A program made the position numbers and the translations under genes. From Spongiibacteraceae bacterium (GTDB lineage: Bacteria; Pseudomonadota; Gammaproteobacteria; Pseudomonadales; PIVM01), in assembly GCA_030618505.1 (NCBI GenBank), contig JAUXDF010000002.1, positions 1 to 38,661 on the forward strand: a stretch of 38,661 bases of DNA, read 5' to 3'. The notes under the pieces were generated by a model, which worked only from the letters and a program-made list of their open reading frames with translations, searched no databases and was not told the DNA's origin. Below are positions 4,969 to 34,009 of the stretch, one piece after another; the stretch's first letter is position 1; each line of letters starts with the position of its first letter.

Positions 4969-5033
4969 TTCGACTTATCAAACAAATGGAGCTTTACCCA
5001 CGCTTACGCATGGGATAAAAGAGTAACTGCGGT

Positions 5034-6344
5034 TTAAGCCAAGCGTTTGTAAACCGGCTCATCAGTCACCATATCAACTACTGGCGGACAGTTATTAGAG
5101 ATAGCTCCCATCATGTTGGGTAGCGCTTTAATGTGAGGCCCAAGAACGGGCTTACCAGTATTCATAATCGCCACCGATATGTCACGCTCAGGATCAGCCC
5201 AGCAAAAAATATTAGAAAAACCCACATGCCCATAGGCGTAATGGCTGTTTCGCCCATACATTCCTACCGGTTTAGCACCCAGCATCATTCCCGCACTATA
5301 ACGCATCGGCAAAAACAGGGATTTATCAATTTGCATCTTACCCGTTTCACGCGTTGCACGATGAATCGTCAAAGGATCAAAAATTTTCTTACCCTTCCAC
5401 TCACCATGATTAAGCAGCAACTGATAAAAGCGACTCACTTCTTCAGCCGTCGCATAAATATTTCCCGAGGGCACAATCGTCTGGTAGAACTGCTCGCTGT
5501 TAGATAGCTCCACACAGTCTTCAACGTCAACAGAAAGTACTTTTTTCAATACACCGCCAATGACACGCCCATTACGCAAACCGGAAGTATAATTAATGGC
5601 GACCTTGTTATAATCTTTTTTATCAAGACCGTAACGAAAATATTTCATCCCCATCGGCTTACGAATATATTTATCAAGATACTGCTGAATATCCATTCCC
5701 GTGGTAACACGAATCAGCTCATCAATAATAAAACCGCCAGTGACTGCATGATAAGCCATCACCCTGCCATCAGGGTCGTTGGGTTCGGCCTCGCAGATCT
5801 GCCTCACTGTCTCGTCGCGATCAAACTCTTCACTAGGTTCGCCAGGAAGATTAGGCACGCCGCCACGATGGGAGAGCATTTGCTGAATAGTAATATTACC
5901 CTTTCCTTTGGCCGCAAATGCAGGAATGTAATAACTCACCGGGTCAAGCAAATTGATTTTTCCCTGCTCTGCTAACAAGTGAGCCAACATCGCACTGATG
6001 GATTTTGACGCAGAGAACAAACAAACAGGCGTATCGAGGGTGGCGATCACAGGATCTTCCACCTGCTCTGCAAAACTGACACCGCGAGCATAGCCAATTG
6101 AGCGATTCAAAAACACTTTGCCATGCCTTCGAATACAAACACTTAACATGGGGTGAATACCGGTGCGAAAAAAATCCTCAATCGTTGACCAGATTTCCTC
6201 GACGGCTTCTGGCGTCAAACCAACATCTCGCGGTGCAGCCTCCCCTTTCTTGTCAATGTCGGTAATTGAGGTCAGGTCTTCGGGAATATCAATGGCACGA
6301 AAGGCTCGGCGATAAATCGCTTTACTGAACTTTTGATATATCAT
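5034..6344 (-). CDS. Serine hydrolase, beta-lactamase/esterase (class C-like) family
   Basis: SxxK motif in LFSASKSISAM. 436-455 aa. The longest ORF extends to 6401, but AGGAG (complement of 6352-6356) sits 7 nt upstream of the ATG at 6344. Confidence 0.75.
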   Translation of the reverse strand: MIYQKFSKAIYRRAFRAIDIPEDLTSITDIDKKGEAAPRDVGLTPEAVEEIWSTIEDFFRTGIHPMLSVCIRRHGKVFLNRSIGYARGVSFAEQVEDPVIATLDTPVCLFSASKSISAMLAHLLAEQGKINLLDPVSYYIPAFAAKGKGNITIQQMLSHRGGVPNLPGEPSEEFDRDETVRQICEAEPNDPDGRVMAYHAVTGGFIIDELIRVTTGMDIQQYLDKYIRKPMGMKYFRYGLDKKDYNKVAINYTSGLRNGRVIGGVLKKVLSVDVEDCVELSNSEQFYQTIVPSGNIYATAEEVSRFYQLLLNHGEWKGKKIFDPLTIHRATRETGKMQIDKSLFLPMRYSAGMMLGAKPVGMYGRNSHYAYGHVGFSNIFCWADPERDISVAIMNTGKPVLGPHIKALPNMMGAISNNCPPVVDMVTDEPVYKRLA

Positions 6345-14084: not shown

Positions 14085-16169
14085 TCAAAAAATATAATAG
14101 TAACCCAAGTTAAAAAATAAAATACGGTACTTTTCGTTCTGATCAAAGCGATTTTTTCCTCGTATAAACTGTCCACCAAACTCACCATCGAGGGTATGCC
14201 GTTTCATAAAACGGTATTCAACACGCAAGACCGGCGCAGTTTTGCTCTGGTCGCTGCCATCTTGATTGTCCCTTTTTTGAAAGCTCAATTTTGACTGTAA
14301 AGACCAGGCACTGGGCCACCGATAGCGATAATGCAGGTAAAGGGTATTAATATCTGAATAGGCCAGTCTTGAGTGATTGGAACTAATAGTTACACTATCG
14401 TAGTCACTAAACAGTCCCTGCCCAAAAATCTGCAGATAATAATAGTATTCGTTTCCTGTGCCCTCAAAGCCCTGCACACCGCCTGATTCTGGTGTATCGG
14501 AAAGATGGGATAAGGTGAATGAGCCGCTGATGCTGTAACGCTGGCTTAATGGATGACTCACATAAAGGTTGGCCGTCTTACTGACATAGGTGCGATCAAG
14601 CGCCAGATCCTCTATAGAGGATCCATCCTCAATAATTTGTTCAAGCGTATCCAGCTCATCACTTTGTTGACCAATCAATGCATTTTGTGTCGTTAAGAAA
14701 GGACTTTTGCGATAGTTTAATGACAGGTTTGTTGTGGTTCCGCTGGAGAAAATATAACTACTATTCAGTAGCAGTGCATTAAGCTCCTTATAAAAAACAT
14801 CATAGTCAAGCAAGCCAGAGAGGTGGACACGCTGCGTGTTATAGGTCACTTCGGTGCCAATCGCACGTCGATCAACGTAGCTATCAATACGCTGCTCTAT
14901 AGCAAAAATATTAACATCTGTAGCCCCATAGAATGGCCCCAGATCACTGCCTACACCGAAGAAATAACGATTTGAATTCACCGATGTGTCGGACGAGCTA
15001 TTTACCGGGTAGCCGGCAACAACATTAATCCGGCTTTTGTTTCCCGTTGGCGTGGAAAGTTGTACTCCATCAAAACGTCCCATAACGCCGTTATGATTAT
15101 CCCGTTGGCGACCTAGCTTGATATGGTGTTCATTTTCCCTATCTTCTGCTTCGATATAAAAATAGCTTAGTCGTCCGCTGTCGCCAGGGCCACCACCAAG
15201 AAAGTCAGCATCATAACCTCCGTTTACTCGACTGGTGACCTCATACTGGCCGCTGCGATAGCGCTGATGGTAATCAATTGAAGTACTTAGCATGGACAGA
15301 CTGGTTTTGCTTTCGCCATTATCATCGGTATTTTCTGCCATGCGATAATACTGAAAAAACCCCCCGTAGCTTTGCCAGGTTTCAGAGGTTTTTTTACGCT
15401 TGTTATTGGCTGAGCGTAATTCTGCTGTCGGCTGCTCCAGGGTAATAAGCGCTGCAAGGCGCTGTTTTACTCGAAAACTGCCATCACTTTCAGGGTATTG
15501 TTTCAGGTAGTCATCGTAAGCTTTTTTGGCGCGGGCTTTTTTACCCGATCTCTCCAGTGCTACCGCATAAAACTCGTAGGCTAGTTGCTTAACAGTTTCG
15601 TCCGTCGATTCTATCAAACGGATATAGATCGATTCAGCTTTGGCGTAGTCGCGCTGGGACATCGCATGTTGTGCTGCCAGAAACAGTGCTTTACTGCTGG
15701 CTTGTTCACCATCCGCTGATACTGCACTTATACTTTGATTTTCTTTGGAGACTCGAAAATCGATAATGAGTCGATGCCCATAACGACCGCTTGGGCCTAA
15801 TAAAAAAACATTCTCCGTGACTGGTTTTGAAAGATCAATAGTAAGCAGCGTAAGGCCTTTATTGACTTTGTCTTGCCTGCGAATGTTCTTTATAAGCTTA
15901 TTGTTTGCGATGATATCTTTCGTAGACAGTTGAAAGCTCGCCAGTGGAATTTCCAGTACCAGCTGAGTTGAGGTACTTTTTCCAAGGCGTTTATAACTAA
16001 TCGCGCCGCTGAGATCGAACACCATGCGGGTTTTGCTCTCACTACTACCGACACGAATATCGTTGATAACAACATCATTAACATTATCTCCCAGAACAGA
16101 CCCTGAGATACACAGCAGTATAAAGCCCCAGCGGCGTATGAGTTTCCCATTAAACTGCCACAGGTGCAT
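14085..16169 (-). CDS. Outer-membrane protein: signal peptide + AMIN domain + TPR region + large C-terminal beta-barrel
   Basis: AMIN-like segment INDIRVGSSESKTRMVFDLSG...RLIIDF. TPR-like helices (AQHAMSQRDYAKAESIYIRL...YDDYLKQYP). About 430 aa of alternating-strand sequence ending YYYIF. The start ATG overlaps the upstream stop (TAATG, 16167-16171). Confidence 0.7.
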   Translation of the reverse strand: MHLWQFNGKLIRRWGFILLCISGSVLGDNVNDVVINDIRVGSSESKTRMVFDLSGAISYKRLGKSTSTQLVLEIPLASFQLSTKDIIANNKLIKNIRRQDKVNKGLTLLTIDLSKPVTENVFLLGPSGRYGHRLIIDFRVSKENQSISAVSADGEQASSKALFLAAQHAMSQRDYAKAESIYIRLIESTDETVKQLAYEFYAVALERSGKKARAKKAYDDYLKQYPESDGSFRVKQRLAALITLEQPTAELRSANNKRKKTSETWQSYGGFFQYYRMAENTDDNGESKTSLSMLSTSIDYHQRYRSGQYEVTSRVNGGYDADFLGGGPGDSGRLSYFYIEAEDRENEHHIKLGRQRDNHNGVMGRFDGVQLSTPTGNKSRINVVAGYPVNSSSDTSVNSNRYFFGVGSDLGPFYGATDVNIFAIEQRIDSYVDRRAIGTEVTYNTQRVHLSGLLDYDVFYKELNALLLNSSYIFSSGTTTNLSLNYRKSPFLTTQNALIGQQSDELDTLEQIIEDGSSIEDLALDRTYVSKTANLYVSHPLSQRYSISGSFTLSHLSDTPESGGVQGFEGTGNEYYYYLQIFGQGLFSDYDSVTISSNHSRLAYSDINTLYLHYRYRWPSAWSLQSKLSFQKRDNQDGSDQSKTAPVLRVEYRFMKRHTLDGEFGGQFIRGKNRFDQNEKYRILFFNLGYYYIF

Positions 16170-17863
16170 TAGAACTCGCCATCCTGCACGCGGTGTTCGC
16201 TGCTCTCATGGCATGCACCTGAGCAATCCTTTAATTCAAACACTGTGTACTTAATATCACCAGATTTCTTGTGAGGCCCTGGGTCGTAATCCTTTTCATG
16301 GCAGGCTGCGCAATCAGGTTGATGCGCAGGAAAAGGCCAGGGAACAGTTTCTGCGTTGCTGGTATGGCAAATATTACAAGTGAGATTACTCCGGTGATCG
16401 CCGGGATAGTTAGCGCTAATGTGAGAAAAGCTGGTAAACGACCAATTGGTAGTATTATGGCAACGATCACATTGCTGGGTCGTCATAAAGTGGCTGGCAG
16501 ATTTTCCCGTGGCGATGATGCCGTCATGGCAGCTGGAACAGTTATTGGAGGCAGTACTATGATCAAAGCTTGCCGGTGTCCAGGCAAGATTGCTGTGGCA
16601 AAGATCGCACTCTGCGTTAGTAGCAATATGATCGCCCGGCTTGCCGGTGGCGACAGAACCATTATGACAACTTGAGCAAGCGCTGGTAATGCCGCTATGG
16701 TCGAACACCGCCGGTAGCCAGGCAAGGTTACTATGACAGAGATCGCACTCTCCACTGGTACTGATATGACCCGTGGGCTTTCCATCAGCCGTGCTACCGT
16801 TATGACAGCTGGAACAACTGCCAAGGACTTCGTCATGATCTACGCGAACGGCAGGTTCCCACTGTACGTTGTTGTGGCAAGCCTCACATACATTACTCGA
16901 TAGTATATGGCTAGTCCCCTTGGGCGTTGACGTAACACCATCGTGACAAGCAATGCAGCTGCTGGTGACGGCATTGTGATCAAAAATTGCTGGCGACCAA
17001 GCAAGGCTATTGTGGCAAAAAGCACAATCGGCATTAGTGGGCAGATGACTAGCATCCTTCCCCGTTGCCTCGATACCATTGTGACAGCTGGCGCATTGCC
17101 CCAACACCTCATTGTGATCGATACGAATGACCGGTTCCCACAGATTTGAACTATGGCATGCTTCGCAAGCGTTGCCAGTCAGTGCATGACTCGCGCTTTT
17201 ACCGGTAGCCGTTAATCCATCATGGCAAGCGATACAATTATTACTCACCGTACTGTGATCAAAGGTCGCCGGCAACCAGGCGATGGCGCTATGACAAAAC
17301 TGACAGTCTGCGTTAGTCGGTAGATGATTGTTGGTTTTTCCCGTGGCGATGACGTTATTGTGACAAGTGAAACATTGACCAGAAATTTCATTATGATCAA
17401 CACGTGGTATTGTTTGCCAGTTATTGTCGATATGACAGCTATCACACTGCTGGGAGCTTAAAATGTGCTGGATCGGTTTTCCCTCAGCACTAATATTGTT
17501 ATGGCAGTTTTGACAAGGCCCAATAGTAGCGCTATGTTCAACACGGACAACTATGTCCCAGCCATTCTCCGTGTGGCAGTCCAGACAATGGTCAGTGCTT
17601 GGAACATGCTGTAAGGGTTTAACAGATGCATCAATACGTCCACGATTGGCGTGGCACGCTTCACAGATTACCGGTGTTCCTTTAAATTGACCATTGATAT
17701 GGCATGACTGGCAATCAACCTGGCGATGTAATCCTTCCAGGGGAAAGCCGGTAAGAAAGTGGTCATACTCAACATTCTGGGCCAAGGCTTGTTGAAACAA
17801 ACACAACATCGCAATAATACTCAAAAAGCCGAAGCGCGAAATAGTGATAGGATCTATTTTCAT
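16169..17863 (-). CDS. Secreted multihaem c-type cytochrome, 21 CxxCH + 1 CxxxCH
   Basis: Signal peptide ending ALAQ with no lipobox. I counted 21 CxxCH motifs plus CSGACH at aa 547-552. About eight tandem di-haem units of 46-47 aa. Confidence 0.9.
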   Translation of the reverse strand: MKIDPITISRFGFLSIIAMLCLFQQALAQNVEYDHFLTGFPLEGLHRQVDCQSCHINGQFKGTPVICEACHANRGRIDASVKPLQHVPSTDHCLDCHTENGWDIVVRVEHSATIGPCQNCHNNISAEGKPIQHILSSQQCDSCHIDNNWQTIPRVDHNEISGQCFTCHNNVIATGKTNNHLPTNADCQFCHSAIAWLPATFDHSTVSNNCIACHDGLTATGKSASHALTGNACEACHSSNLWEPVIRIDHNEVLGQCASCHNGIEATGKDASHLPTNADCAFCHNSLAWSPAIFDHNAVTSSCIACHDGVTSTPKGTSHILSSNVCEACHNNVQWEPAVRVDHDEVLGSCSSCHNGSTADGKPTGHISTSGECDLCHSNLAWLPAVFDHSGITSACSSCHNGSVATGKPGDHIATNAECDLCHSNLAWTPASFDHSTASNNCSSCHDGIIATGKSASHFMTTQQCDRCHNTTNWSFTSFSHISANYPGDHRSNLTCNICHTSNAETVPWPFPAHQPDCAACHEKDYDPGPHKKSGDIKYTVFELKDCSGACHESSEHRVQDGEF

Positions 17864-19443
17864 TATTGCGTCCCTTCATCCAGATTAAAACTATCCACCT
17901 GATGACACTGACTGCAGCGTTTTCCAAAACTGCCTCGATGTATATCATCATCACGGTGACAATCAAAGCAGGACTGAGGTGTCTGTTTCGAGTTGTTATG
18001 GCATAGCTCGCATTGCAGGTTTTCATGTGCACCTTGTAATGCGAAGTGCGTCTGTCGACCATGATCAAACAACCACATCATCCAGTCATTGGGGTTATGG
18101 CATAGACCACAATCCTCACCCAAAGCACCTTTGTGAGCATCTTGTTGCTTGTGGCACTGCTGACAATCAGAGGGTGTTTTTTCGTAATGAGCGTTTAGAT
18201 GGCACTCCTGGCAACTCAGTTGGCGATGCATACCCACGAGCGGAAATTGGGTAATTTCATGACTGAATAAAGTCTTTTTCCAACTATCGGGAGAGTGGCA
18301 GTTGTCACACTCCTTTCCCAAGGATTGCTGATGCGGGTCAGACAATTGATGACAATCAACACATTGCTGTGAAAGTTTTTCATCTGTTTTTGTCGGACTA
18401 TGACAAGAATTACAGGCAAGATGCTTATGTTTTCCGGCCAAGGGGTATTCAGTATCGCTATTATGATCAAAGGCTGTTTTTGACCAGCTTTTGGATGAGT
18501 GGCATTGCTGACAATCCTCGCCATTGCGACCGTTGTGAATATCGCTACTTTTGTGGCAACTGAAACAATCACTGGCAAGCATATTCTCTTTGCTGACAGT
18601 TTTCTGATGGCAGGCCAGGCAAGATGTTTTCTGATGCGAGAAAAGCAATTTAAATTTAGTGTCAAGACCATGATCAAACAGACTTTTCCCCCAGTCTTTT
18701 TCAGAATGACAATTTTTACAATCACTGCCAAACCTTCCCTGATGGATATCATGTATACGATGACAGTCATTACATTGCTTGCCAATATCCTGGTACTGAC
18801 GATTGATGTGGCAGCGATTACAGGCTACATCCTGGTGTTTATGCGCCAATGGAAACTCGGTTTTATCATGGTCAAACTGCTGCTTTTTCCAGTTGTCCGT
18901 TGTATGGCAGTCTTCACACTGTTTTCCCAGTTTATTGTTATGTATGTCATTTTTTTCATGGCAATCAAAGCAGCTTCGTTGCTCTAATCTGTAGCTCTTC
19001 TTATTAGTCGAGGTATGACAAAGAACACAGGCTGTAACGCTATGTTTGCCATCCAGCGGGAAGTTTGTAAGGTGGTGATTAAAACTGTCGGTATCCAGAT
19101 TAACAATATCGTACCCTCTGCCTTTATGATCGGTATGGCAGGTTTTACATTCGGCATTTTTAATATTTTTGTTTAAACCGTGAAAACCGGCGCTACGATC
19201 AAGATCTTCAGCGATCTTATCGTGACAGTCCAAACAGAGAGAGCTTTGCTCTGCTTTGGAAAAGTCCTGATGGCATTTGTCGCAGCTCGCAGCCTCCTCC
19301 TGGTGAGATTGCGTTAAATCGCCAGGACTGAGCAATATCTGTTTTAGCGTTTGGGCCTGGGAAAAAGGTGTGCTTAATAACAAGACAAAACAAAGCAACG
19401 ATAGGAAAATAACAATAGCAGATCGATTTCTTATCAAATTCAT
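17863..19443 (-). CDS. Secreted multihaem c-type cytochrome, 21 CxxCH
   Basis: Signal peptide ending SQAQ with no lipobox. 21 CxxCH motifs counted. Five tandem tri-haem units of 65-69 aa plus a partial sixth (two CxxCH), of the c7/c3-like paired-CxxCH type. The stop overlaps the next start (TAATG, 17861-17865). Confidence 0.9.
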   Translation of the reverse strand: MNLIRNRSAIVIFLSLLCFVLLLSTPFSQAQTLKQILLSPGDLTQSHQEEAASCDKCHQDFSKAEQSSLCLDCHDKIAEDLDRSAGFHGLNKNIKNAECKTCHTDHKGRGYDIVNLDTDSFNHHLTNFPLDGKHSVTACVLCHTSTNKKSYRLEQRSCFDCHEKNDIHNNKLGKQCEDCHTTDNWKKQQFDHDKTEFPLAHKHQDVACNRCHINRQYQDIGKQCNDCHRIHDIHQGRFGSDCKNCHSEKDWGKSLFDHGLDTKFKLLFSHQKTSCLACHQKTVSKENMLASDCFSCHKSSDIHNGRNGEDCQQCHSSKSWSKTAFDHNSDTEYPLAGKHKHLACNSCHSPTKTDEKLSQQCVDCHQLSDPHQQSLGKECDNCHSPDSWKKTLFSHEITQFPLVGMHRQLSCQECHLNAHYEKTPSDCQQCHKQQDAHKGALGEDCGLCHNPNDWMMWLFDHGRQTHFALQGAHENLQCELCHNNSKQTPQSCFDCHRDDDIHRGSFGKRCSQCHQVDSFNLDEGTQ

Positions 19444-19444
19444 A

Positions 19445-20296
19445 TCAATACATATGCACCACTACAATATGAACTGTTGCAGTAATAATCATCATAAAGA
19501 AAAATGGCAGATGTACGATATGCCAAATGGAGAACAGCCGATTGTAGAGTGAGAGGCCAATCATCGAACGCAAGGTTTTTAGTTCTTGCTCAAAATGTTC
19601 TGTCATCTCCGTGTAAAAAAATTGCTGTCCCCCAGCTGTTTGCACAGATGCGCCATTTAAACGCCTGAGCTCACTCAATAAACGGTGTGACAGCACATTG
19701 ACCCTGAAAACGGAACGCCAACTGTGAATCAGAGAGCTATTTTTATCAGCCACCAGATCCTCAATTTTTTGCAGATGCTGCAATAAAGCATCATCAATCA
19801 TCGCGTTTGAACTGAGTTGCTGCTTGAACTGGGCGTGCTGGGCTTGAAGTTGATCATAATTCAGTTTTTTACCGTAAAGTCCATTATGGGTGTGTCGGTA
19901 AATATAACGGCCAATCAAACCACTGAACGCCACTAACAGCATGGAGAACAATGCAACATTAGAGTTCATGGAGCCGAGACCAAAATTGCAATGAAAGAGA
20001 ATTAATGTGGGGCCCAAAATACCAAATAGCATATGGGCCTTAAACCAGTATTTAATCGGGAAAACACCACGCATCCAACGCGCTTTTTTTCGTAGCGGGT
20101 AAAGCAGCAATAAGGCCATTAAACTCACGCCGATAATACCCAGGTAATAACCCAAACCTTGTTCCGCACTAAGCCAATATTCATCACGTTGCAGCCAGCC
20201 CCAGCTTAATGCAAGCGCCAAACTGACCGAAAAAAGTAATTGGTAAATGTTTTTAGTTAATATTTCGAACATCGTTATAACCGGTGCTTCTATCAC
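19445..20296 (-). CDS. Integral membrane protein with two H-x13-H helices (putative di-haem b-type electron carrier)
   Basis: Five predicted TM helices. H88/H102 lie in one helix and H262/H276 in the last. About 100 aa of soluble helical insert between TM4 and TM5. GTG start at 20296, alternative ATG at 20272. The stop is 1 nt from the cytochrome start. Confidence 0.6.
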   Translation of the reverse strand: MIEAPVITMFEILTKNIYQLLFSVSLALALSWGWLQRDEYWLSAEQGLGYYLGIIGVSLMALLLLYPLRKKARWMRGVFPIKYWFKAHMLFGILGPTLILFHCNFGLGSMNSNVALFSMLLVAFSGLIGRYIYRHTHNGLYGKKLNYDQLQAQHAQFKQQLSSNAMIDDALLQHLQKIEDLVADKNSSLIHSWRSVFRVNVLSHRLLSELRRLNGASVQTAGGQQFFYTEMTEHFEQELKTLRSMIGLSLYNRLFSIWHIVHLPFFFMMIITATVHIVVVHMY

Positions 20297-21870: not shown

Positions 21871-23880
21871 TTGGTGGATAAGCGCACTACATATATCCAA
21901 TGTTTTACCGCACTGGGAGGCTACAGGAAGGTATGCGTTCATTTTCTCTGGGCTCTATTGATACTGATCGGTCTAACAACTCCCTGTACAGGAGCAGAAA
22001 ATAAAACTGTACTGGCGCCACACATTAAGCGCTTAATACTTACTGAACAGTATCAACAACTTGAACCTGAACTACGCAAGTTAGCTATGCAAGGTAACGC
22101 TGAAGGACAGTATCAACTGGGGATACTTTATCTCCACGGTAATGCGGTAAAGGAAAACCATCAAATGGCGCTTTACTGGTTTGAAAAGTCGGCCAGACAG
22201 CATCATACAAAAGCACAATTTAACAGTGCCATGCTGTTAGTAGGCGAAAAAAGAAACCGGCAAAAGGCCATTATTTATTTACAATCGGCTGCCGCTAGCG
22301 ACCACAAAATGGCTGAAATGCACCTAAAAGATTTGACTCAGGGCTCTGAAAAAAATAAAGAGATGGACCAGTCAACACTCAATAGCCGCTTGATTTATGC
22401 AGCAAAAAAAGGCGATAGCGAGGAGATAAGTTCATGGATAAATGCCGGTGCCGATCCCAACAGCACCGACAGCGACGGCAGGACAGCACTGATACTCGCT
22501 GTGGAAAATGGCAATATTGCCGCCCCAACGGTATTGCTCAATGCTGGTGCGAATATGCTAGTGACAGATCCCACGGGAAATACAGCCCTTCATTTCGCCG
22601 TTATTACGCATAATCGTAAAATAGTAAAACCTCTTGCTGCAAGCGGCAATTTGGAACAAAAAAACCAACAGGGACTGACTGCTCTTCTATTAGCCATTGA
22701 GTTAAACGATGCCAATTTGGTGGCTGAATTGCTATTGCATGGTTCCAATGCCAATGCGGTAAACAGCAATAGCGCAAGTGCCCTGGATAATGCACAAAGG
22801 AAATCGAATAAAACGATTATTGATTTACTTAAACAATACGGAGCCAGATCAGCCACAACGGAAAAAAAGGAGTTGACCCGTCGCTTGGCCGCCATTCAAG
22901 CACAGCTAAAACAGCCACAATTTAAAGACTGGGATGAGTTAATGCTAGCAGCCAGCATGGGTGATTATGAAATGGTTGACTGGTTACTAATAGAGGATTC
23001 ACCGGATAAAAACAGTTATAAGACTGGCAAAGCAATCGCTCAGTCAGTTATCTCAAACGACAAAAAGACCACTGAGCTATTGTTAAATCATTTGCAAGAA
23101 AAAAGTATCGCTAATGCCGATATTCGAGAGATTATTGATCTTGCCATTGAGCATTATGACCTGGGGCGGTTTTCTCATTTGTATCAACATCCTTTATTGC
23201 ATGAGGCAAAAAACCTGTCCGCCGGAAAACTGTTAAGACAGTCGATTACTGAGGGGAAGCCAGACACTGCAATCTATCTTATTCAGCAAGGCGGCAAACT
23301 TAACTATGTATCAGAAAATGGTGAATCACATTTAATAACTGCATCAAAAAGAGGCCAGACCGCTGTGATCGAAAAGCTTTTAGCCACCGGTGTCGCGGTT
23401 GATGATAAAGATCAGCTAGGAAGAACTGCGCTATGGCACAGCGCTTATGCGGGGCATCACCAAACGGCTAAATTGCTAATCTCTAACGGTGCTGACCTTG
23501 ATCTAAGCGATCAGCAAGGACGGACAGTTTTGATGATGGCAGTGCTCAACAATGACGACAAATTAGTAGACCTACTGCTGCGCTCAGGCGCTAGCCTGGA
23601 TAAAGTTAGCAAGAGTGGAAATACGCCGTTACATATCGCAGCTAAAAAAACCTCTCCCCAAATCATCACCCTCCTGTTAGAAAAGAAGGCTAATTTATCA
23701 CTTCGTAACAGCAACAGCCTGACGCCATTAATGATCGCTGCACAAGCAGGTAATGAGCCGGCAGTGAAGCTATTATTGATTGCAGGTGCTGACCCAGACA
23801 GAAAAAATCAGAATGGTCACTCAGCCATCGACATAGCAAACAAGCAGAAAGTAGTTACTCTATTGAAAGAATACCAGTAG
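21871..23880 (+). CDS. Secreted Sel1-like repeat + ankyrin-repeat protein
   Basis: TTG/GTG start 7-10 nt after GGTGAGG. Hydrophobic signal-like segment FLWALLILIGLTTPCTGA. Sel1 repeats (GNAEGQYQLGILYLHG, ALYWFEKSA). At least 8 ankyrin repeats (e.g. GRTALILAVENGN, GNTALHFAV, GNTPLHIAAKK). Confidence 0.8.
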   Translation: MVDKRTTYIQCFTALGGYRKVCVHFLWALLILIGLTTPCTGAENKTVLAPHIKRLILTEQYQQLEPELRKLAMQGNAEGQYQLGILYLHGNAVKENHQMALYWFEKSARQHHTKAQFNSAMLLVGEKRNRQKAIIYLQSAAASDHKMAEMHLKDLTQGSEKNKEMDQSTLNSRLIYAAKKGDSEEISSWINAGADPNSTDSDGRTALILAVENGNIAAPTVLLNAGANMLVTDPTGNTALHFAVITHNRKIVKPLAASGNLEQKNQQGLTALLLAIELNDANLVAELLLHGSNANAVNSNSASALDNAQRKSNKTIIDLLKQYGARSATTEKKELTRRLAAIQAQLKQPQFKDWDELMLAASMGDYEMVDWLLIEDSPDKNSYKTGKAIAQSVISNDKKTTELLLNHLQEKSIANADIREIIDLAIEHYDLGRFSHLYQHPLLHEAKNLSAGKLLRQSITEGKPDTAIYLIQQGGKLNYVSENGESHLITASKRGQTAVIEKLLATGVAVDDKDQLGRTALWHSAYAGHHQTAKLLISNGADLDLSDQQGRTVLMMAVLNNDDKLVDLLLRSGASLDKVSKSGNTPLHIAAKKTSPQIITLLLEKKANLSLRNSNSLTPLMIAAQAGNEPAVKLLLIAGADPDRKNQNGHSAIDIANKQKVVTLLKEYQ

Positions 23881-26513: not shown

Positions 26514-27197
26514 TTATGGTAATTTAAGCGTAAAACAACCACCGCCGGAGGGAAGATTGCTAATCTCAATCATGCCTTTTAATTCATCTTTCGTGTGCAT
26601 CGCTGCTATCTGGGCAGCAAAATACAAGCCCAAACTGGTGCTACCACTGTCAAAATCAATGCCTTTTACATAAGCAGAAGGTTCACGGATCATCATCTCC
26701 GGGTACCCTCTCCCATTATCCATCACCTTTATTTGTAGATATTCATCATCGATAGCGGCACTGATAACAATGCTGTCTTTGGTATATCTGGCAGCGTTTA
26801 CCAATATATTATTTAACACCCCGGCAATCAGGTCATCATCAAAATAGCCGGCAAGATTTTCCTCACACTGCACAGTGGTCGTGATATCACGAATATCAAA
26901 TAAGATACTATTTTGAGCTACTTGCTCCTCAAGGAAATCTCTAACAAATATCTCTTCAATATGAATAGGAAGCTCATCGCGCTGTAGCCTATATATACCG
27001 AGCAAGTAAATAAGATCATTTCGAATCCGGGATGCTTCACCCTGCAAAGTACAATATTTCTTTTTATGATTGTCTTCTTCGGCGGGGTATTCACTCATTA
27101 AATCCTCAAGGGAGGAGAGCAACATCCCCAGAGAGTTCTTCATATCATGAACAGAAGACGCTAACAGCAGGGAGAAATCATTATTGTTATCATTCAT
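26514..27197 (-). CDS. Soluble histidine kinase lacking a recognisable input domain
   Basis: H-box SVHDMKNSL, N-box NNILVNAARY, G1 MDNGRGYP, G2 GSTSLGL. No TM segment. ATGA overlap with the upstream response-regulator gene. Confidence 0.85.
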   Translation of the reverse strand: MNDNNNDFSLLLASSVHDMKNSLGMLLSSLEDLMSEYPAEEDNHKKKYCTLQGEASRIRNDLIYLLGIYRLQRDELPIHIEEIFVRDFLEEQVAQNSILFDIRDITTTVQCEENLAGYFDDDLIAGVLNNILVNAARYTKDSIVISAAIDDEYLQIKVMDNGRGYPEMMIREPSAYVKGIDFDSGSTSLGLYFAAQIAAMHTKDELKGMIEISNLPSGGGCFTLKLP

Positions 27198-28843
27198 GCT
27201 TTTTTATCCGCCCATTTTTCCAGTTGCTGTTTAAGGTTTTCCCGGAGCTTGTAAAACTGACTATCCTCTTCTAAATATTCCAATTTAATCAGTATGCGCT
27301 TACAGCGGGAAAGATAAATGCTGTCAGTGCCTGTTTTAACCATCTCTCTAACCAGGGCCATCGCCAGATTTAAATTCAGTGCCACATGATTAGGGAAGAT
27401 TCGCAAGGCTTTGTTAAAGAAATCGACAGCGCCTTTGAAGTCCTTGGCATCAAACAAGGCCTTTCCTTCGTGGTTAAACTCAAGCATTTTGGCTTTACCG
27501 GCCTGACTGACCGGCTCATCAAGGCAGTTATCAATGGCGTTGGTAACTGCCTCATCATCACGGTATTTTTCCGCCAGATTGGTAAGTACTTCCTTGGCCT
27601 TTTCGCTTTCACCATTGGCATGAAGCGCTCTGGCACGACTTAATATCACCTCGGGAGGCAACTCCTCTAAAGCTTCCATTTTTGATAAAGATTCTTCTGC
27701 CGATTTTAAAAACTCCTCCGCCTTATCCTCTTTTCCGGCAGCTTTCGCGGTCTCAAATTGCATATACTTGGTTCTGACCTGAACCCCTGCATCCCCGCAA
27801 AATCGTTTGCTCACTCGCTTCAACGTAGTGTTCGCATCCTCATAACGCCTTTTATCAAAGCCTGAACCACTATCTACCACCTTATTCAAACAACTGACAT
27901 AGTTAAAATAATTGCTCGGCTCTTCATGGCAGGAATGCAGGCCAATTTTGACGACTTTTTTATGCGCTTTCTCCGCTCTCTCCAGATCATCATTAGTTTC
28001 ACAGACTGCAGCCAATTTTATTTGTCGCAATATGGCTTCCGGTGAAAGCTCTGCGGCCTCTTCAAGAATCGCCTGAGCCTCGAAGGTATTACCCTTTTCA
28101 TTCAAGACCTCTGCCAAACAATCATGCACCTCAAGACAAGGACTGCGTTGCTGCAGCAAACTTCGAAAAACCTCTTCAGATTTATCCAGCATACCGACAC
28201 CCATCAGCGCCTTTCCCAAACCGATCATCGCCCAGACCATCTGGCGTTCTTTCAAGGCATCCTGATAGAGAGCTATCGCCTCTTTATATTGCTTGGTACG
28301 CAACATAAAGTTACCCAGCATCTTTGTACATAAAGTGCGGTATTTATCATTCAGAGCTATTTTATCTTCACATAATTCGATAGCTAGCTCGTACTGCTCA
28401 TTGTCTGCAGCCTCATTAATCGCACTCAACTCGTTCCTGGCAATAAGCAGTGCATCAAGACGTTTTTGCAGATAAGGCGGTGAAAATGGTTTGGCGATAT
28501 AGGCATCAGGCTGATTTTCTATGGCACTGTAAACCTTGTCACGAGTGGTTTCAGCGGTAATCATCAAGTACAGACTGGAGTGTTTGATCAGGTTTCGAAA
28601 TCGCATTTCCTCCAACAACTGCTGTCCGTTCTTTTTCTCCCCCAGATTAAAATCAGCCAGAATAATGTCATATCTGTGCTTCATGCACATCTCCATCGCC
28701 TCTTCACATTTGCTGGCGGTATCCACATGCTCGGAGCCAAATTTAGCCAACAAGCGTTTTATCGACGCACGGATATCAGGATAATCATCGACCACCAAAC
28801 ATTTTTTGTTTTTATAGAGTCGAACAATATCGATCTGCAGCAT
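27194..28843 (-). CDS. Response regulator: receiver domain + long TPR domain (no DNA-binding output)
   Basis: REC motifs VVDD, ILADFNL and AKPF. About 400 aa of TPR-like repeats follow. Confidence 0.85.
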   Translation of the reverse strand: MLQIDIVRLYKNKKCLVVDDYPDIRASIKRLLAKFGSEHVDTASKCEEAMEMCMKHRYDIILADFNLGEKKNGQQLLEEMRFRNLIKHSSLYLMITAETTRDKVYSAIENQPDAYIAKPFSPPYLQKRLDALLIARNELSAINEAADNEQYELAIELCEDKIALNDKYRTLCTKMLGNFMLRTKQYKEAIALYQDALKERQMVWAMIGLGKALMGVGMLDKSEEVFRSLLQQRSPCLEVHDCLAEVLNEKGNTFEAQAILEEAAELSPEAILRQIKLAAVCETNDDLERAEKAHKKVVKIGLHSCHEEPSNYFNYVSCLNKVVDSGSGFDKRRYEDANTTLKRVSKRFCGDAGVQVRTKYMQFETAKAAGKEDKAEEFLKSAEESLSKMEALEELPPEVILSRARALHANGESEKAKEVLTNLAEKYRDDEAVTNAIDNCLDEPVSQAGKAKMLEFNHEGKALFDAKDFKGAVDFFNKALRIFPNHVALNLNLAMALVREMVKTGTDSIYLSRCKRILIKLEYLEEDSQFYKLRENLKQQLEKWADKKA

Positions 28844-29049
28844 AATGTATGAGCCAAAGCTGTTAAATAAAATACGGGTTATAAATGAGTCTAGATCAGC
28901 CTGCCACGCTTTGCAGGCTTAAGAGCATGAAAATCCACAGTTTTCGTGGAGTCCGCCACAGATATACCTCTATTTTGTCCAGAAAAGCCGTTATAATCTT
29001 TTAACCTTAAGCCTTAAAATATTATTCATTTCGCGAAGCAGTACAAATT

Positions 29050-31902
29050 ATGTTCATTCGTTATAGCTTGAGCGCAATCACTCCCCTGCTGCTTTTGCTG
29101 GGTCTGACCGTTTTTGCCATCAATGGCGAGGCGGCTTCGCCTCCCCCCTTCAATAACTGGCAAACTATCGAAACCGATCACTTTCGTATTAATTATGAAA
29201 AACCACATGCCAGGCAGGCACAACATCTGGCGGATATCGCCGAATCGGTCTATCCGAAAATCACCCAATACCTGGACTGGCAACCCAAGCGCAAGACGCA
29301 GGTAAACCTGTTTGACTTTACCGATGCTACCCACGGTTGGGCAAATATTCTCCCCTACCCACTCACCGGGATATTTATGACCCCACCGGATGAGGGAGAA
29401 CTACTTGGCAATGACGATTGGCTACAGCTGCTATTTACCCACGAATTTCTTCATATCGTCCATCTCGACAAAGTACGCACAACACCGGCCAGCCTGCAAA
29501 ATATTTTCGGGCGCCACCGCTGGCTGTTTCCAAATCGTTTTCAGCCCGCCTGGGTCAGTGAGGGTCTGGCGACCTATACTGAATCTCACTTCAGTCTGGT
29601 GAATGGCGGACGAGCACTAAGCCCCTATTATGAAATGTTGATGCGCCTGGAAGTCGCCCAGGGTTTAAAGCCCATCGAGGAAATCAACACTAATGGCAAC
29701 TTCTGGCCGCTGAACCATAGCTATCTCTACGGCAGCTATTTTTTCGTGTTTTTGGAAGAGGAGTACGGCGACAAGGTTATTAGCCGCTATGTAAATGACT
29801 ATAGCGACAACCTGGTTCCCTATCGAATTGTCAGCAATCCGCTAAAGACCACCGGGCTGAAACTGCCACAACTCTGGCAGCGCTTTGAGCAGTGGTTGCA
29901 CCAACGCTTTGATCCACAGATTGCACAGATACGCGAACAGGGAGAAGTGGGCGGAGAAGCATTAACCAATAGCGGTTTTTTCTCAGCTAACCCCGTGCAA
30001 AACAATCTCGGTGAACTCTATTTTGTTGAAAACGATGCGGGCAGCCATGCCTATTTAGCCCAGCTCATTTCAGGCAAAAAGAAAGAAGAACAAACAAAAC
30101 GCTATCGTCGACTGACAAAGGTGCAACCCGGTGCCCGAATCGACAGTCACCCCACCGAAGGCATTATCATCGCCCAGCCTGAGATATGCGACCATAATCG
30201 CAGTTACTACGACCTGTTTCTACTTCCTCGAGACGAAGGCAAACCTCGGCGCCTGACCAAATGCTCCCGTTACCGGCTCGCCAGCTGGCACCCCAATGGC
30301 AAACAACTGGCCGCAGTGCATGTTAATCAGGGTATCGTGCGTATTGACCTGTTATCGTCTGATGCTGTTCCTCTTGATACGCTGTATCGAGGCGGGACGA
30401 ACGAAGCCATTAACGCCATCGACTGGTCTCCGGACGGACAGCGGTTATTGGTCAGTCGAAAAATCAATCAGCAGTGGGATCTGTATTATCTGGATGTCAC
30501 GAGTCACCAATGGCAACAGATTACCGATGACAAGGTAACCCAGTTAAATGGCCGCTTCAGCGATGATGGACAACATATTGTTTACAGCAGCGACAAGGAT
30601 GACCAATTTCGAATAAAGTTACTTGATACCGAAAGCGGCACTGTCAGCACCCTCAGCAATCGACTTGGTGCATCGTTACACCCATCCGGTTATGGCGAGA
30701 AAGGTGTGCTGGCTTATACCGCAATCGACAGCGAGGGGCAGGACATTTACCAACTTGGCTTAAACGAGACACAGATAGAAAAATTCATATTACCCACTCC
30801 CCAAACTGTCGCGACAACAGACAGCAGCAGCCCCGAAAACGCTACTACTGTCGAGTATCAAAGCACGCGTTACAACCCCCTGCGCAGTATTGCGCCAACG
30901 TCTTGGGAGCCCGTCTGGCGAACCGATGATGGCGACAGCACCGCGTTGGGCATCAGCGTATCGGGACAAGATGCGGTTGGGCTGCATTTTTACAATGCTC
31001 AGCTATTGTATGAAACCGATGTAAAAGAATACTTCGGCACCATCAACTATATTTTTGACCAACGCCTTTTCCTCAGTTTCGACAAGGAGTTTGATGTTGA
31101 AGTGGTTGTTGATGGTAAAACCAGCATCTACGAAACCAATACCGAATACCAGATGGCCTATACCTTTCCCTTTGACACACTGGATGAGCGCTGGCATATC
31201 TCCCCCGCCTACAGTTTCGAGCGCGTTAAATACAAATCAAGGGACAGCTCCCTACAAGCGGCAAGAGAAAACGTCCTCGGCATACATTTTTCATACAGCA
31301 ACGTGCAACAGTACATACTCTCACACGGCCCCGCCGAGGGAAGATCCATTGAGTTTATTGTCGAGAGTTATGACTGGCTTAACAACGATTTTACCGGCGA
31401 GGTATACACCCTCGACTGGCATGAATATATCCCCGCTTTTGGCACAACTTTAGCGCTACGCTTTATGCAAGGCTGGGGAACAGAAAATCCAACGAAATTT
31501 GAGCTCGGTGGTGTATTTTCCGAATACGAATTTGATATACCGCGTATTAATCAACGCAGTTATTCGCTTCGAGGCTATAGCACCAACGCCACTTACCTGC
31601 GAGGCCGACGTGCCCGCCTGGGCAGTGCAGAGTGGCGAATACCAATTAATCAAAAATATTACTCTTATATGGTACCGCCTATAGGTTTTGGCAAAATGTC
31701 TACCATTCTTTTTGCTGAAAGCGGCGCTGCCTGGGATAAGGGCGGATCGCCAGATAGCTACTATTCATCCGCCGGCGCCGAATTTATCGCAGAAATTATT
31801 CTTGGTTATAACCTGGTGCTGGATACTCGCCTGGGCTATGCCCATGGTTTTGATGAGATTGGTGAAGACCGTTATTATGTGCGTATTGGCAGGGCATTTT
31901 AA
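29050..31902 (+). CDS. Secreted fusion protein: gluzincin-like metallopeptidase domain + PD40/TolB-like beta-propeller + Omp85-type C-terminal beta-barrel
   Basis: Signal peptide ending INGEA. HEFLH at aa 131-135 (nt 29440-29454) with WVSEGLATY downstream. PD40-like repeats WHPNGKQLAAV, WSPDGQRLLVS and FSDDGQHIVYSS. The C-terminus (LRGY...AEWRIP...FAESGAAW...RIGRAF) resembles the bacterial surface antigen barrel. Confidence 0.7.
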   Translation: MFIRYSLSAITPLLLLLGLTVFAINGEAASPPPFNNWQTIETDHFRINYEKPHARQAQHLADIAESVYPKITQYLDWQPKRKTQVNLFDFTDATHGWANILPYPLTGIFMTPPDEGELLGNDDWLQLLFTHEFLHIVHLDKVRTTPASLQNIFGRHRWLFPNRFQPAWVSEGLATYTESHFSLVNGGRALSPYYEMLMRLEVAQGLKPIEEINTNGNFWPLNHSYLYGSYFFVFLEEEYGDKVISRYVNDYSDNLVPYRIVSNPLKTTGLKLPQLWQRFEQWLHQRFDPQIAQIREQGEVGGEALTNSGFFSANPVQNNLGELYFVENDAGSHAYLAQLISGKKKEEQTKRYRRLTKVQPGARIDSHPTEGIIIAQPEICDHNRSYYDLFLLPRDEGKPRRLTKCSRYRLASWHPNGKQLAAVHVNQGIVRIDLLSSDAVPLDTLYRGGTNEAINAIDWSPDGQRLLVSRKINQQWDLYYLDVTSHQWQQITDDKVTQLNGRFSDDGQHIVYSSDKDDQFRIKLLDTESGTVSTLSNRLGASLHPSGYGEKGVLAYTAIDSEGQDIYQLGLNETQIEKFILPTPQTVATTDSSSPENATTVEYQSTRYNPLRSIAPTSWEPVWRTDDGDSTALGISVSGQDAVGLHFYNAQLLYETDVKEYFGTINYIFDQRLFLSFDKEFDVEVVVDGKTSIYETNTEYQMAYTFPFDTLDERWHISPAYSFERVKYKSRDSSLQAARENVLGIHFSYSNVQQYILSHGPAEGRSIEFIVESYDWLNNDFTGEVYTLDWHEYIPAFGTTLALRFMQGWGTENPTKFELGGVFSEYEFDIPRINQRSYSLRGYSTNATYLRGRRARLGSAEWRIPINQKYYSYMVPPIGFGKMSTILFAESGAAWDKGGSPDSYYSSAGAEFIAEIILGYNLVLDTRLGYAHGFDEIGEDRYYVRIGRAF

Positions 31903-32116: not shown

Positions 32117-32851
32117 GTGAAGCAAGCACTCACAGCATTTCTGAAAACGCTATTAAATAGCGCACGCGACCTGCTTCCAATCGTTGCTGTCGTGCTCTTT
32201 TTTCAATTTGTGGTACTCCAGCAACCACTGCCCAACATGGCAGGGCTGATCATCGGTATGGCCTTCGTGGTACTGGGTTTAACCTTTTTTATCTACGGCT
32301 TGGAAATGGGTCTATTCCCCATCGGCGAATCAATGGCTCATGCTTTTGCCCGTAAAGGCAGTATATTCTGGTTGCTAACGTTTGCTTTCGCCCTTGGTTT
32401 TGGCACCACTATCGCAGAACCTGCACTTATTGCGGTGGCGAAAGAAGCCGCCACCATCGCCGCAGAAGGCAATATGATAGTGAACACCGAAGAGGCAAGA
32501 TCAAGCTACGCCTCCGGGTTGCGTTTAACCGTGGCTTTTTCGGTTGGCCTTGCTATTGTTATTGGCGTACTGAGAATATTGAAGGGCTGGCCAATTCAGT
32601 ACCTTATTGTTGGCGGTTATATTCTTGTGGTTTTAATGACCACCATTGCGCCGAAAGAAATTATTGGTATAGCCTATGATTCCGGCGGCGTCACTACTTC
32701 CACCATTACCGTACCGCTGGTAACGGCACTCGGGGTAGGCCTCGCATCCTCCATTAAAGGGCGAAACCCAATGATCGACGGCTTTGGCTTAATTGCCTTT
32801 GCCTCATTAACACCGATGATCTTTGTGATGGCTTACGGGATGTTAATATGA
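32117..32851 (+). CDS. DUF1538-family integral membrane protein (paralog 1)
   Basis: Polytopic membrane protein. Motifs [22 protein letters not shown] and [17 protein letters not shown] are shared with the next gene. GTG start. Confidence 0.7.
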
Positions 32852-33648
32852 TCGAGCTCCTCAAAGAATTTTTCATGATGTTCCTGTCCACGATTGTGGA
32901 TGTGCTTCCCATCATCACCATTATTTTTGCCTTCCAGCTTTTTGTTATCCGCCGCCCCGTTCCCAATATCAAAAAGGTCTGCTTTGGTTTTATCTACGTT
33001 TTGATCGGCTTGTCACTTTTTCTGCTGGGACTTGAGAAGGCTCTATTTCCACTTGGCCGGACAATGGCCGAGCAGCTCACCGCAGCTAACTTTATCACCG
33101 AAAGCGGAGATCTTACACTCGTCAGCTGGAAGGATTATTACTGGGTATATCTATTTGCATTTATGATCGGCTTTAGCACTACTATCGCAGAACCATCACT
33201 AATGGCCGTCGCTATTAAGGCCAATGAAGTATCGGGTGGTGCAATTGGTATCTGGGGTTTGCGGATAGCCGTTGCCTTCGGTGTGGCCTTTGGCATTTCG
33301 CTGGGGAGCTATCGCATTGTGGTGGGTCATCCGATCCACTACTACATTATCGCTGGCTATATTGTCGTTGTAATACAAACTTTTTTTGCTCCCAAGCTGA
33401 TCATCCCCCTGGCCTACGACTCAGGCGGCGTCACCACCTCAACAGTAACAGTTCCACTGGTTGCAGCTCTGGGTTTGGGCTTATCAGAGACAGTACCGGG
33501 AAGAAGCCCTTTGATTGACGGTTTTGGCCTAATCGCCTTTGCCAGCTTGTTCCCGATCATATCCGTGATGTTTTACGCACAGCTCGCTGAAGCACGATCA
33601 CGGCTGGAATTTTTTAAAAACAGAAACAACGAAAACAAAAAAGCTTAG
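32848..33648 (+). CDS. DUF1538-family integral membrane protein (paralog 2)
   Basis: Same motif set ([39 protein letters not shown]). ATGA overlap with paralog 1. Confidence 0.7.
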
Positions 33649-33658
33649 GAGATCCCTT

Positions 33659-34009
33659 ATGCATTTTAAAATGATTATTGTCTTTGTCGAAGATGACAAG
33701 ACCGATGCCGTGGTGAAAGCAGCGCGCCATGCTGGGGCAACTGGTTCAACAATCATCAACAATGCCAGAGGCGAAGGACTGAAAAAAAATAAAACGTTTT
33801 TTGGTCTATCACTGGAAACCCAGAGAGACGTTTTACTTTTTTTGGTAGAAGAACATCTTAGCCGACATATACTCGAGGAAATCGGCAAAGCAGGACATTT
33901 TGATGACAGCCCTGGCACAGGCATCGCTGTTCAAATTGATGTTGAGGATGCCATCGGGGTAAAACACCAGATTGAGAAACTAGCCGATATCGTGGAGAAA
34001 GAGCTATGA
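33659..34009 (+). CDS. PII-like signal-transduction protein
   Basis: 116 aa. Beta-alpha-beta pattern MIIVFVEDDKTDAVVKAARHAGATGSTII, then a T-loop-like ARGEGLKKNKTFFG segment, then GTGIAVQIDVEDAIG. Confidence 0.65.
   Translation: MHFKMIIVFVEDDKTDAVVKAARHAGATGSTIINNARGEGLKKNKTFFGLSLETQRDVLLFLVEEHLSRHILEEIGKAGHFDDSPGTGIAVQIDVEDAIGVKHQIEKLADIVEKEL

Follow-up and report, generated by a model that had tools for sequence, protein, structure and literature searches.

The gene and the layout of its product

The stretch of DNA analyzed here (the window) comprises 38,661 nucleotides of contig JAUXDF010000002.1, from an uncultured Spongiibacteraceae bacterium of cold-seep sediments, and the subject of this report is one of its genes, which encodes a predicted zinc metallopeptidase fused to a β-propeller and to a β-barrel of the Omp85 type. 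The gene is complete (29050-31902, + strand, with an ATG start and a stop codon at 31900-31902 according to the list of open reading frames) and its product has 950 residues. Metagenomes of cold-seep and marine sediments are the source of this DNA. An AlphaFold2 model of the full protein, built from a 117-sequence alignment, has a mean predicted local distance difference test score (pLDDT) of 91.5 and a predicted template modeling score of 0.91. Unless the other strand is indicated, all features described below lie on the + strand.

The polypeptide begins with a type I (Sec) signal peptide, read from the sequence at approximately residues 1-28 (29050-29133; MFIR, a hydrophobic core and GEA↓A), in which no lipobox is found. 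Residues 1-29 are disordered and of low pLDDT in the model, and comparable AxA-type signal peptides start all the homologues, just ahead of the conserved mature N terminus. Residues 30-296 (29137-29937) constitute a zinc metallopeptidase domain of the gluzincin fold, an α/β domain in the model, as judged from a Foldseek search with the domain model and from conservation. Helix 124-140 of this domain carries the zinc-binding and catalytic motif HEFLH (H131, E132, and H135; 29440-29454), and helix 167-180 carries the segment WVSEGLATY (residues 168-176; 29551-29577), where E171 would be the third zinc ligand. We take this residue to be the counterpart of the glutamate in the NEGFA motif of M1 peptidases.

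The second domain is a TolB/PD40-like β-propeller at residues 297-580 (29938-30789), supported by PD40 and TolB matches, by its fold, and by the DSSP assignment. An earlier reading of this DNA from its letters alone (the sequence-only reading) had counted three PD40/TolB-like repeats; the propeller is real, and the approximately 23 to 24 strands that the model places at residues 300-580 fit about six blades. One loop of the propeller contains a charged insertion of seven residues (340-346; 30067-30087, within SGKKKEEQTKRY), which is missing in more than 90% of the homologues and where the confidence of the model is lower.

A linker of 35 residues (581-615; 30790-30894), with pLDDT values of 55-74, almost no secondary structure, and one conserved column in 35, leads to the third domain, an Omp85-type β-barrel at residues 616-950 (30895-31899). 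Here, DSSP assigns 16 long strands between residues 618 and 946, the first (618-625) and the last (940-946) being short. Loop 6, a 43-residue insertion between strands 11 and 12 (residues 811-853; 31480-31608), carries L840-R841-G842-Y843, presumably the counterpart of the VRGF/Y lock of BamA; the barrel also contains E861-x-R863-x-P865 and F888-A-E-S-G892 (that is, F888-x-E890-x-G892), and it ends in a β-signal-like Y943-x-x-x-G947-x-x-F950. The signal peptide and the motifs that the sequence-only reading had listed (HEFLH at 131-135, WVSEGLATY at 168-176, LRGY at 840-843, E861/R863/P865, F888/E890/G892, and F950) all lie at the places that it gave.

Sequence and fold evidence for the three domains

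When the protein is scanned as a single sequence against Pfam and NCBIfam, the propeller is the only region with significant matches. PD40 scores 31 bits (Pfam cutoff: 20.9), and residues 456-577 match TIGR02800, the equivalog model for TolB, with an E-value of 2e-17, whereas the M61 peptidase and BamA (NF058613) models reach E-values of 0.069 and 0.15, and neither PF01103 (at E ≤ 1) nor patatin is matched. The TIGR02800 score does not make the protein a TolB orthologue, and this identity was rejected, because it amounts to 63.2 bits against a cutoff of 343 and covers only positions 239-360 of the model, which belong to the propeller. Sequence and profile searches of the Protein Data Bank (PDB) give the same picture, with TolB-type propellers as the only matches and with the peptidase and the barrel unmatched even at E ≤ 10; TolB structures are matched by sequence profile with an E-value of 1e-22 and by fold with an E-value of about 1e-7.

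The other two domains become visible in the homologues and in the predicted structure. Among 50 members of the family scanned against Pfam, 10 match the Omp85 family PF01103 at E ≤ 0.01 (best E-value 6.7e-6), 5 match Peptidase_MA_2 (best E-value 4.2e-5), and 31 match PD40 (PF07676); also, the Tricorn_N and Tricorn_2nd propeller models match family members. Several homologues bear precomputed PF01103 matches, and the NCBI name of one of them is "BamA/TamA family outer membrane protein". A Foldseek search of the PDB with the full model retrieves TolB structures as well as BamA/TamA barrels with a probability of 1.00, with template modeling (TM) scores for the barrel of 0.59 to TamA (PDB code: 4n74), 0.56 to BamA of D. 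radiodurans (PDB code: 8xnb), and 0.50 to BamA of E. coli (PDB code: 9cs0). The C-terminal barrel announced by the sequence-only reading is thus confirmed as one of 16 strands and of the Omp85 type.

For the N-terminal domain, which was also modeled alone (pLDDT of 88.5), the top 50 Foldseek matches are all gluzincins, with probabilities of at least 0.99 and TM scores up to 0.60. The best of them is the M30 peptidase lugdulysin (PDB code: 7bb8; E-value 6e-6, TM score 0.60), and further matches include M1 aminopeptidases (IRAP, ERAP1/2, LTA4H, and ColAP), M9 collagenases, and M61 peptidases. With the gluzincins of families M30 (lugdulysin and hyicolysin), M9, M1, and M61, the domain shares the thermolysin-like fold, the HExxH motif with a downstream glutamate on the next helix, and the xEGxA context of the latter, and the family consensus HEYTH is identical to that of clostridial collagenases. 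Nonetheless, identity to these peptidases is only 12-17%, an extra HLDK follows HExxH here, and two features separate the domain from the M1 aminopeptidases, an identity that was therefore rejected: the GxMEN motif is present in none of 117 homologues, and the spacing from H135 to E171 is 35 residues, compared with 18 in M1.

Between the propeller and the barrel there are only the 35 residues of the linker, and none of the 50 family members matches POTRA (PF07244); the protein is therefore POTRA-less, as the sequence-only reading had suspected by eye. This state does not bar it from the Omp85 superfamily, since accepted subfamilies without POTRA exist (noNterm and WD40-like; PMC4104836). The three domain assignments (gluzincin peptidase, TolB-like propeller, and Omp85 barrel) and the missing POTRA are correct, and with them the earlier prediction of an outer-membrane-anchored metalloprotease holds by fold and by homologue searches.

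The propeller can be compared with those of TolB, the tricorn protease, and the prolyl oligopeptidase (POP) and DPP-IV enzymes, all of the PD40 type, TolB being the closest by sequence and by fold. However, the window protein lacks the TolA-binding domain that TolB carries at its N terminus, and tricorn, POP, and DPP-IV are serine peptidases, whereas the catalytic domain here is that of a metallopeptidase, for which gating by the propeller would follow by analogy.

Conservation of the active site and of the barrel motifs

At least 455 homologues were found, mostly of 920-990 residues and full-length, and conservation was measured over 117 of these, the most distant having about 33% identity. 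The residues that are invariant in all 117 sequences include H131, E132, H135, W168, E171, G172, and E178 (seven residues after E171) in the peptidase and G842, Y843, R863, F888, and E911 in the barrel. R841 and G892 are kept in 116 and E861 in 113 of the 117, and P865 and F950 are conserved in at least 95%. Hence, HExxH is conserved in the homologues, as had been expected from the single sequence, and a family of this size with invariant motif residues argues that the set of features is not a product of chance.

The HExxH motif is followed by a nearly invariant extension, H138-L-D140-K141 (29461-29472), in which H138 and D140 are each present in 115 of the 117 sequences, giving the family signature HE[YFL]xH[IV][VLI]HLDK; H138 lies on the same face of the helix as H131 and H135 and may be a second-shell residue or an alternative ligand. 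Columns conserved in at least 90% of the sequences make up 21% of the peptidase domain, 14% of the whole barrel, 26% of loop 6, and 5.6% of the propeller. The peptidase is then the most constrained domain, loop 6 of the barrel being comparably constrained. The best conserved stretch of the propeller (residues 371-413) contains a near-invariant pair of cysteines, C380 and C405 (30187-30189 and 30262-30264; 91% each), which probably form a disulfide and possibly mark an interface with another domain.

A profile of the peptidase domain retrieves 7,872 cluster representatives, 1,845 of which have E-values of 1e-30 or lower. Among the 150 best matches, nearly all are proteins of 900-1000 residues, which indicates that this peptidase, the propeller, and the barrel travel together. 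At least 560 species-level genomes of Gamma- and Betaproteobacteria contain relatives.

A member of the WD40-like Omp85 subfamily

The sequence-only reading regarded this architecture as uncharacterized and new, and in this respect it does not stand. Heinz and Lithgow (Front Microbiol 5:370, 2014; PMC4104836) divided the Omp85/TpsB superfamily into subfamilies, among them one called WD40-like, in which a TolB-like propeller takes the place of POTRA and for which a platform resembling BamA-BamB was proposed. In their supplementary material, WD40-like architectures are given as PF01103 plus PF07676 repeats (Table S2), and each member is listed with its Phyre2 matches to BamA/TamA and TolB and with a "best aminopeptidase" match (Table S3), the templates for the latter being c1z5hB, c4kxdA, c4fgmA, c4ar1A, and others. 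Two of these, 4fgm and 4ar1, reappear in the Foldseek search with the N-terminal domain of the window protein. Moreover, the protein D5CSQ4 from Sideroxydans lithotrophicus (UniRef100_D5CSQ4, P0291 in our set), a WD40-like member of Table S3, aligns with the window protein end to end (residues 13-950 against 5-933; BLASTP E-value 1e-149, 31% identity). Since a listed member is a full-length homologue, the window protein is a member of the WD40-like Omp85 subfamily, and its architecture was already cataloged in 2014.

The three parts are the same in both cases, a barrel, a PD40 propeller, and a domain resembling aminopeptidases, and POTRA is lacking in both. In its main text, PMC4104836 covers the propeller only, with no mention of an invariant zinc site or a prediction of an active protease. 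Later work refers to Omp85 subfamilies with "divergent WD40 and peptidase domains" (PMC11358297, 2024) and states that WD40-like Omp85 proteins "have not been well characterized" (PMC11116518, the 2024 paper on PlpD). Within the family, the window protein falls into a divergent subclade (P0001-P0013), whose members share 42-100% identity with one another and at most 36% with the main clade, and which has its own gene neighborhood, described below.

Proposed function and orientation

Domain order, folds, and invariant motifs are established directly. Based on them, the reading that we favor, with a probability of about 0.55, is that the protein would be a zinc endopeptidase anchored in the outer membrane and facing the periplasm. 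Its steps can be ranked by falling support, from an active enzyme, through an endopeptidase or oligopeptidase and an anchor inserted by the β-barrel assembly machinery (BAM), to the role of the propeller.

First, the peptidase is predicted to be active, since its active-site helices, HExxH and E171 included, do not vary and constraint is strongest in this domain. Pseudo-enzymes normally lose their catalytic residues. The invariance of HExxH and the glutamate bears directly on the proposal made in the main text of PMC4104836, according to which the protein would be a nonproteolytic factor or scaffold for outer membrane protein (OMP) assembly, a "BamA-BamB fusion" whose propeller docks, whose barrel inserts, and whose peptidase-like domain only binds. 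The signature motifs of BamA retained in the barrel and the short first and last strands, which recall the BamA seam, are in line with such a role. Yet the propeller is TolB-like, with PD40 motifs and approximately six blades, unlike the eight-bladed, PQQ-type BamB, and with POTRA the usual docking sites for substrates and lipoproteins are gone, so that, together with the conservation of the catalytic set, a scaffold appears very unlikely. Since the active site is complete and invariant, it is more appropriate to regard the family members as active proteases than as BamB-like scaffolds.

Second, the enzyme would be an endopeptidase or oligopeptidase without the character of an M1-type aminopeptidase, because GxMEN is missing and the spacing from histidine to glutamate is different. 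This step has to be weighed against the possibility that the protein trims oligopeptides or the peptides of peptidoglycan in the periplasm, the barrel being a mere anchor and quality control no part of its role. Short peptides are the typical substrates of enzymes with a propeller gate (tricorn, POP, and DPP-IV, for example), the fold resembles the aminopeptidases of families M1 and M61, and in one main-clade locus an NlpC/P60 gene lies immediately downstream; nevertheless, the exopeptidase motif GxMEN is absent, loop 6 and the barrel motifs are more conserved than a passive anchor seems to need (26% of loop 6 columns at ≥90%), and the 78 main-clade loci examined show no conserved linkage to genes for peptide transport or murein. 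A pure trimming enzyme is, on balance, unlikely.

Third, export by Sec and BAM-dependent insertion are consistent with the signal peptide and the terminal phenylalanine, and the barrel would then act as an anchor. Loop 6 of Omp85 proteins is extracellular and folds back into the lumen, where it is locked by its RG[FY] motif. An external loop 6 that joins strands 11 and 12 means that the odd-numbered strands lead outward and that strand 1 begins on the periplasmic side, which would most likely place the 550-residue module of peptidase and propeller under the outer membrane, suspended from its inner face. The near-invariant pair C380/C405 fits an oxidizing compartment. By analogy with BamA, the conserved RGY, E861-x-R863, and F888-x-[ED]-x-G would imply a lumen plugged by loop 6.

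The likeness to BamA and TamA extends to the 16 strands, loop 6 between strands 11 and 12 with RG[YF], the short seam strands, the C-terminal aromatic residue, and the conserved partners, acidic and of the FxDxG type, on strands 12 and 13, the contacts of which were mapped from established knowledge. On the other hand, BamA and TamA have POTRA, where the window protein carries an enzyme and a propeller instead; its gene is not near bam or tam genes, and its sequence likeness to BamA is marginal (NF058613, as above).

The orientation is also what separates this reading from self-export. The sequence-only reading had suggested an analogue of type Vd secretion, in which the barrel would move its own peptidase-propeller module to the cell surface, where it would degrade extracellular proteins or be released. 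Such a role would suit an enzyme-Omp85 fusion resembling PlpD; the N-terminal domain of the window protein has secreted enzymes (such as the M30 lugdulysin and the M9 collagenases) among its fold neighbors, and the linker of 35 low-confidence residues could span a barrel. The same alternative was raised by Heinz and Lithgow for the "Metallo" class of Omp85 (PMC4104836). However, loop 6 is kept with its invariant RGY lock, and in BamA and TamA this loop fills the lumen beneath a closed external dome (PMC4104836). POTRA and TpsB-like features are absent, a folded cargo of 550 residues in two domains, one of them a closed propeller, is implausible for a barrel of 16 strands, and propellers of the TolB type are periplasmic modules.

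Furthermore, PlpD, the sole precedent, keeps its enzyme domain on the periplasmic side: work published in 2024 placed its patatin domain in the periplasm and showed it not to be secreted (PMC11116518). For PlpD/FplA and the window protein, the common trait is a single polypeptide in which a hydrolase at the N terminus is joined to an Omp85 barrel, the hydrolase being probably periplasmic in both; PlpD would thus offer a precedent, by analogy, for a periplasmic passenger. Nonetheless, PlpD combines a patatin lipase with one POTRA and forms homodimers, in contrast to the POTRA-less combination of a zinc peptidase and a propeller described here, and membership of type Vd by domains was rejected, as patatin and POTRA are both unmatched and the passenger consists of a peptidase and a propeller. 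With strand 1 starting in the periplasm and the PlpD passenger periplasmic as well, the analogy with type Vd secretion is weak, and we consider self-export quite unlikely.

Fourth, the propeller would restrict or recruit substrates, as in the tricorn protease and the prolyl oligopeptidases; by this analogy, it is likely that the propeller selects or gates them. The enzyme would then act on unfolded polypeptides or peptides of the envelope, in the processing or the quality control of envelope proteins, and in the small lineage of the window its gene is linked to, and probably co-regulated with, the regulator and kinase pair described in the next section.

Several observations weigh against the proposal of a periplasm-facing endopeptidase. 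The window protein is below every Pfam threshold for peptidases and Omp85, and those two assignments rest on homologues and predicted structure. In principle, the 35 residues of the linker would suffice to thread a barrel. The 78 main-clade loci contain no conserved neighbor pointing to a pathway or a substrate, no match to a sigma-E-type promoter was found, and no RNA-seq runs carrying the gene were found. Finally, a literature search returned no functional characterization or experimental work on the WD40-like Omp85 subfamily, in accordance with the earlier view of a family with no described function.

Genomic context and regulation

On the opposite strand, upstream of the gene and divergent from it, lie two genes that overlap by 4 bp. 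The proximal one (27194-28843, - strand) encodes a 549-residue protein with a response-regulator receiver domain (REC) and tetratricopeptide repeats (TPR), in which Pfam detects no DNA-binding output domain; the distal one (26514-27197, - strand) encodes a small, soluble histidine-kinase-like protein of 227 residues with a HATPase_c domain. The spacer between the two divergent units measures 206 bp (28844-29049), exactly as the sequence-only reading had it. The link with this response-regulator/histidine-kinase operon, also proposed there, holds in part. All six subclade members examined have the gene divergent from a REC-TPR gene (approximately 545 residues) and a HATPase_c kinase gene (approximately 227 residues), with different outer flanks, but the pair is beside the gene in none of the 78 main-clade loci, and the regulator is devoid of a DNA-binding domain.

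Also, the spacer contains an 11-bp motif, GTCTAGATCAG (28889-28899), a candidate operator that occurs once in the whole window and is kept at the same spacer position in three related loci. In the form GTCTAGA(T/A)CAG, a single spacer copy with an unchanging strand is present in four of the six subclade loci (the window, L081 at 5593-5603, L082 at 5773-5783, and L086 at 4979-4989), and none of the 84 other loci has the motif; the sequence that follows it in L081, as in the window, is TTTGCAGG. The conservation of the pair in six of six loci and the motif in four of six supports a lineage-specific functional link between the gene and the REC-TPR/kinase pair. Because it has no DNA-binding domain, the REC-TPR protein is not obviously the factor acting at the 11-bp site. 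A scan for sigma-70 promoters and terminators performed no better than on shuffled sequence.

In the main clade, the gene is normally a stand-alone unit, given that none of its neighbors is conserved over the 78 loci, the best family being present in 13 of them at variable positions. Subsets of these loci follow ubiE-ubiJ-ubiB or flank uvrD, which is uninformative.

Immediately downstream of the gene in the window (32117-34009) are two tandem genes for DUF1538 membrane proteins followed by one for a P-II-like protein. This trio recurs in L081 together with a CBS protein, forming a conserved cassette. In the two closest relatives, a lipoprotein of approximately 500 residues (lipobox LLSAC) is encoded directly downstream of the orthologue (L081, 8643-10124; L082, 9026-10570); the two copies share 46% identity, have no Pfam match, and are absent from the window and all other loci.

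A more elaborate version of the periplasmic reading can be drawn from the POTRA-less barrel, with its BamA-like short seam strands and the lock of loop 6, and from the context just described. The protein could be a one-polypeptide counterpart of BAM-BepA, in which the seam of the barrel would catch the β-signal of stalled or misassembled OMPs and feed them to the propeller-gated protease, with tuning by the REC-TPR/kinase pair through the 11-bp motif in the subclade. BepA is an M48 zinc metalloprotease of OMP quality control that is placed, on the periplasmic side, at an Omp85 barrel (PMC13478230; bioRxiv 10.64898/2026.07.01.735768), and the likeness to the arrangement predicted here is one of function. 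Nevertheless, BepA is a separate, soluble protein from another peptidase family that docks noncovalently through its TPR repeats, whereas the handling of substrates by the barrel of the window protein is hypothetical, and we regard this version as improbable.

Implications

Omp85 proteins are central to outer-membrane biogenesis. For specialists in these proteins, nothing in these results should come as a surprise; yet what is added to the catalog of 2014 makes it a tractable and worthwhile experimental target. The gluzincin active site is complete and invariant, and it lies in the most constrained domain; the peptidase is not an M1-type aminopeptidase; and members of this large family occur in at least 560 species-level genomes and form about 7,900 sequence clusters. 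Hosts available in culture include Sideroxydans lithotrophicus ES-1, Pleionea mediterranea, Permianibacter fluminis, and Natronospira bacteriovora. A further new detail is that the small subclade including the window keeps the divergent REC-TPR/kinase pair and the 11-bp motif. A protease acting at the membrane on proteins of the envelope would represent a new kind of device for envelope quality control, whereas one that trims only peptides would be an ordinary enzyme with an unusual anchor.

Other features of the window

Elsewhere in the window, a cluster of four genes (14085-20296, - strand) encodes two multiheme c-type cytochromes of approximately 525-565 residues (Cytochrome_C7, c3, and MtrC/MtrF-like), a 694-residue protein with an AMIN domain, and a 283-residue protein with no Pfam match; this may be a module for extracellular or periplasmic electron transfer. 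Another gene (21871-23880) encodes a protein of 669 residues made almost entirely of ankyrin repeats, with a Sel1 repeat, an unusual load for a free-living bacterium. Finally, the window contains a stand-alone gene for a patatin-like phospholipase of 379 residues (3829-4968) that has no Omp85 barrel and is, therefore, no fusion of the PlpD type.

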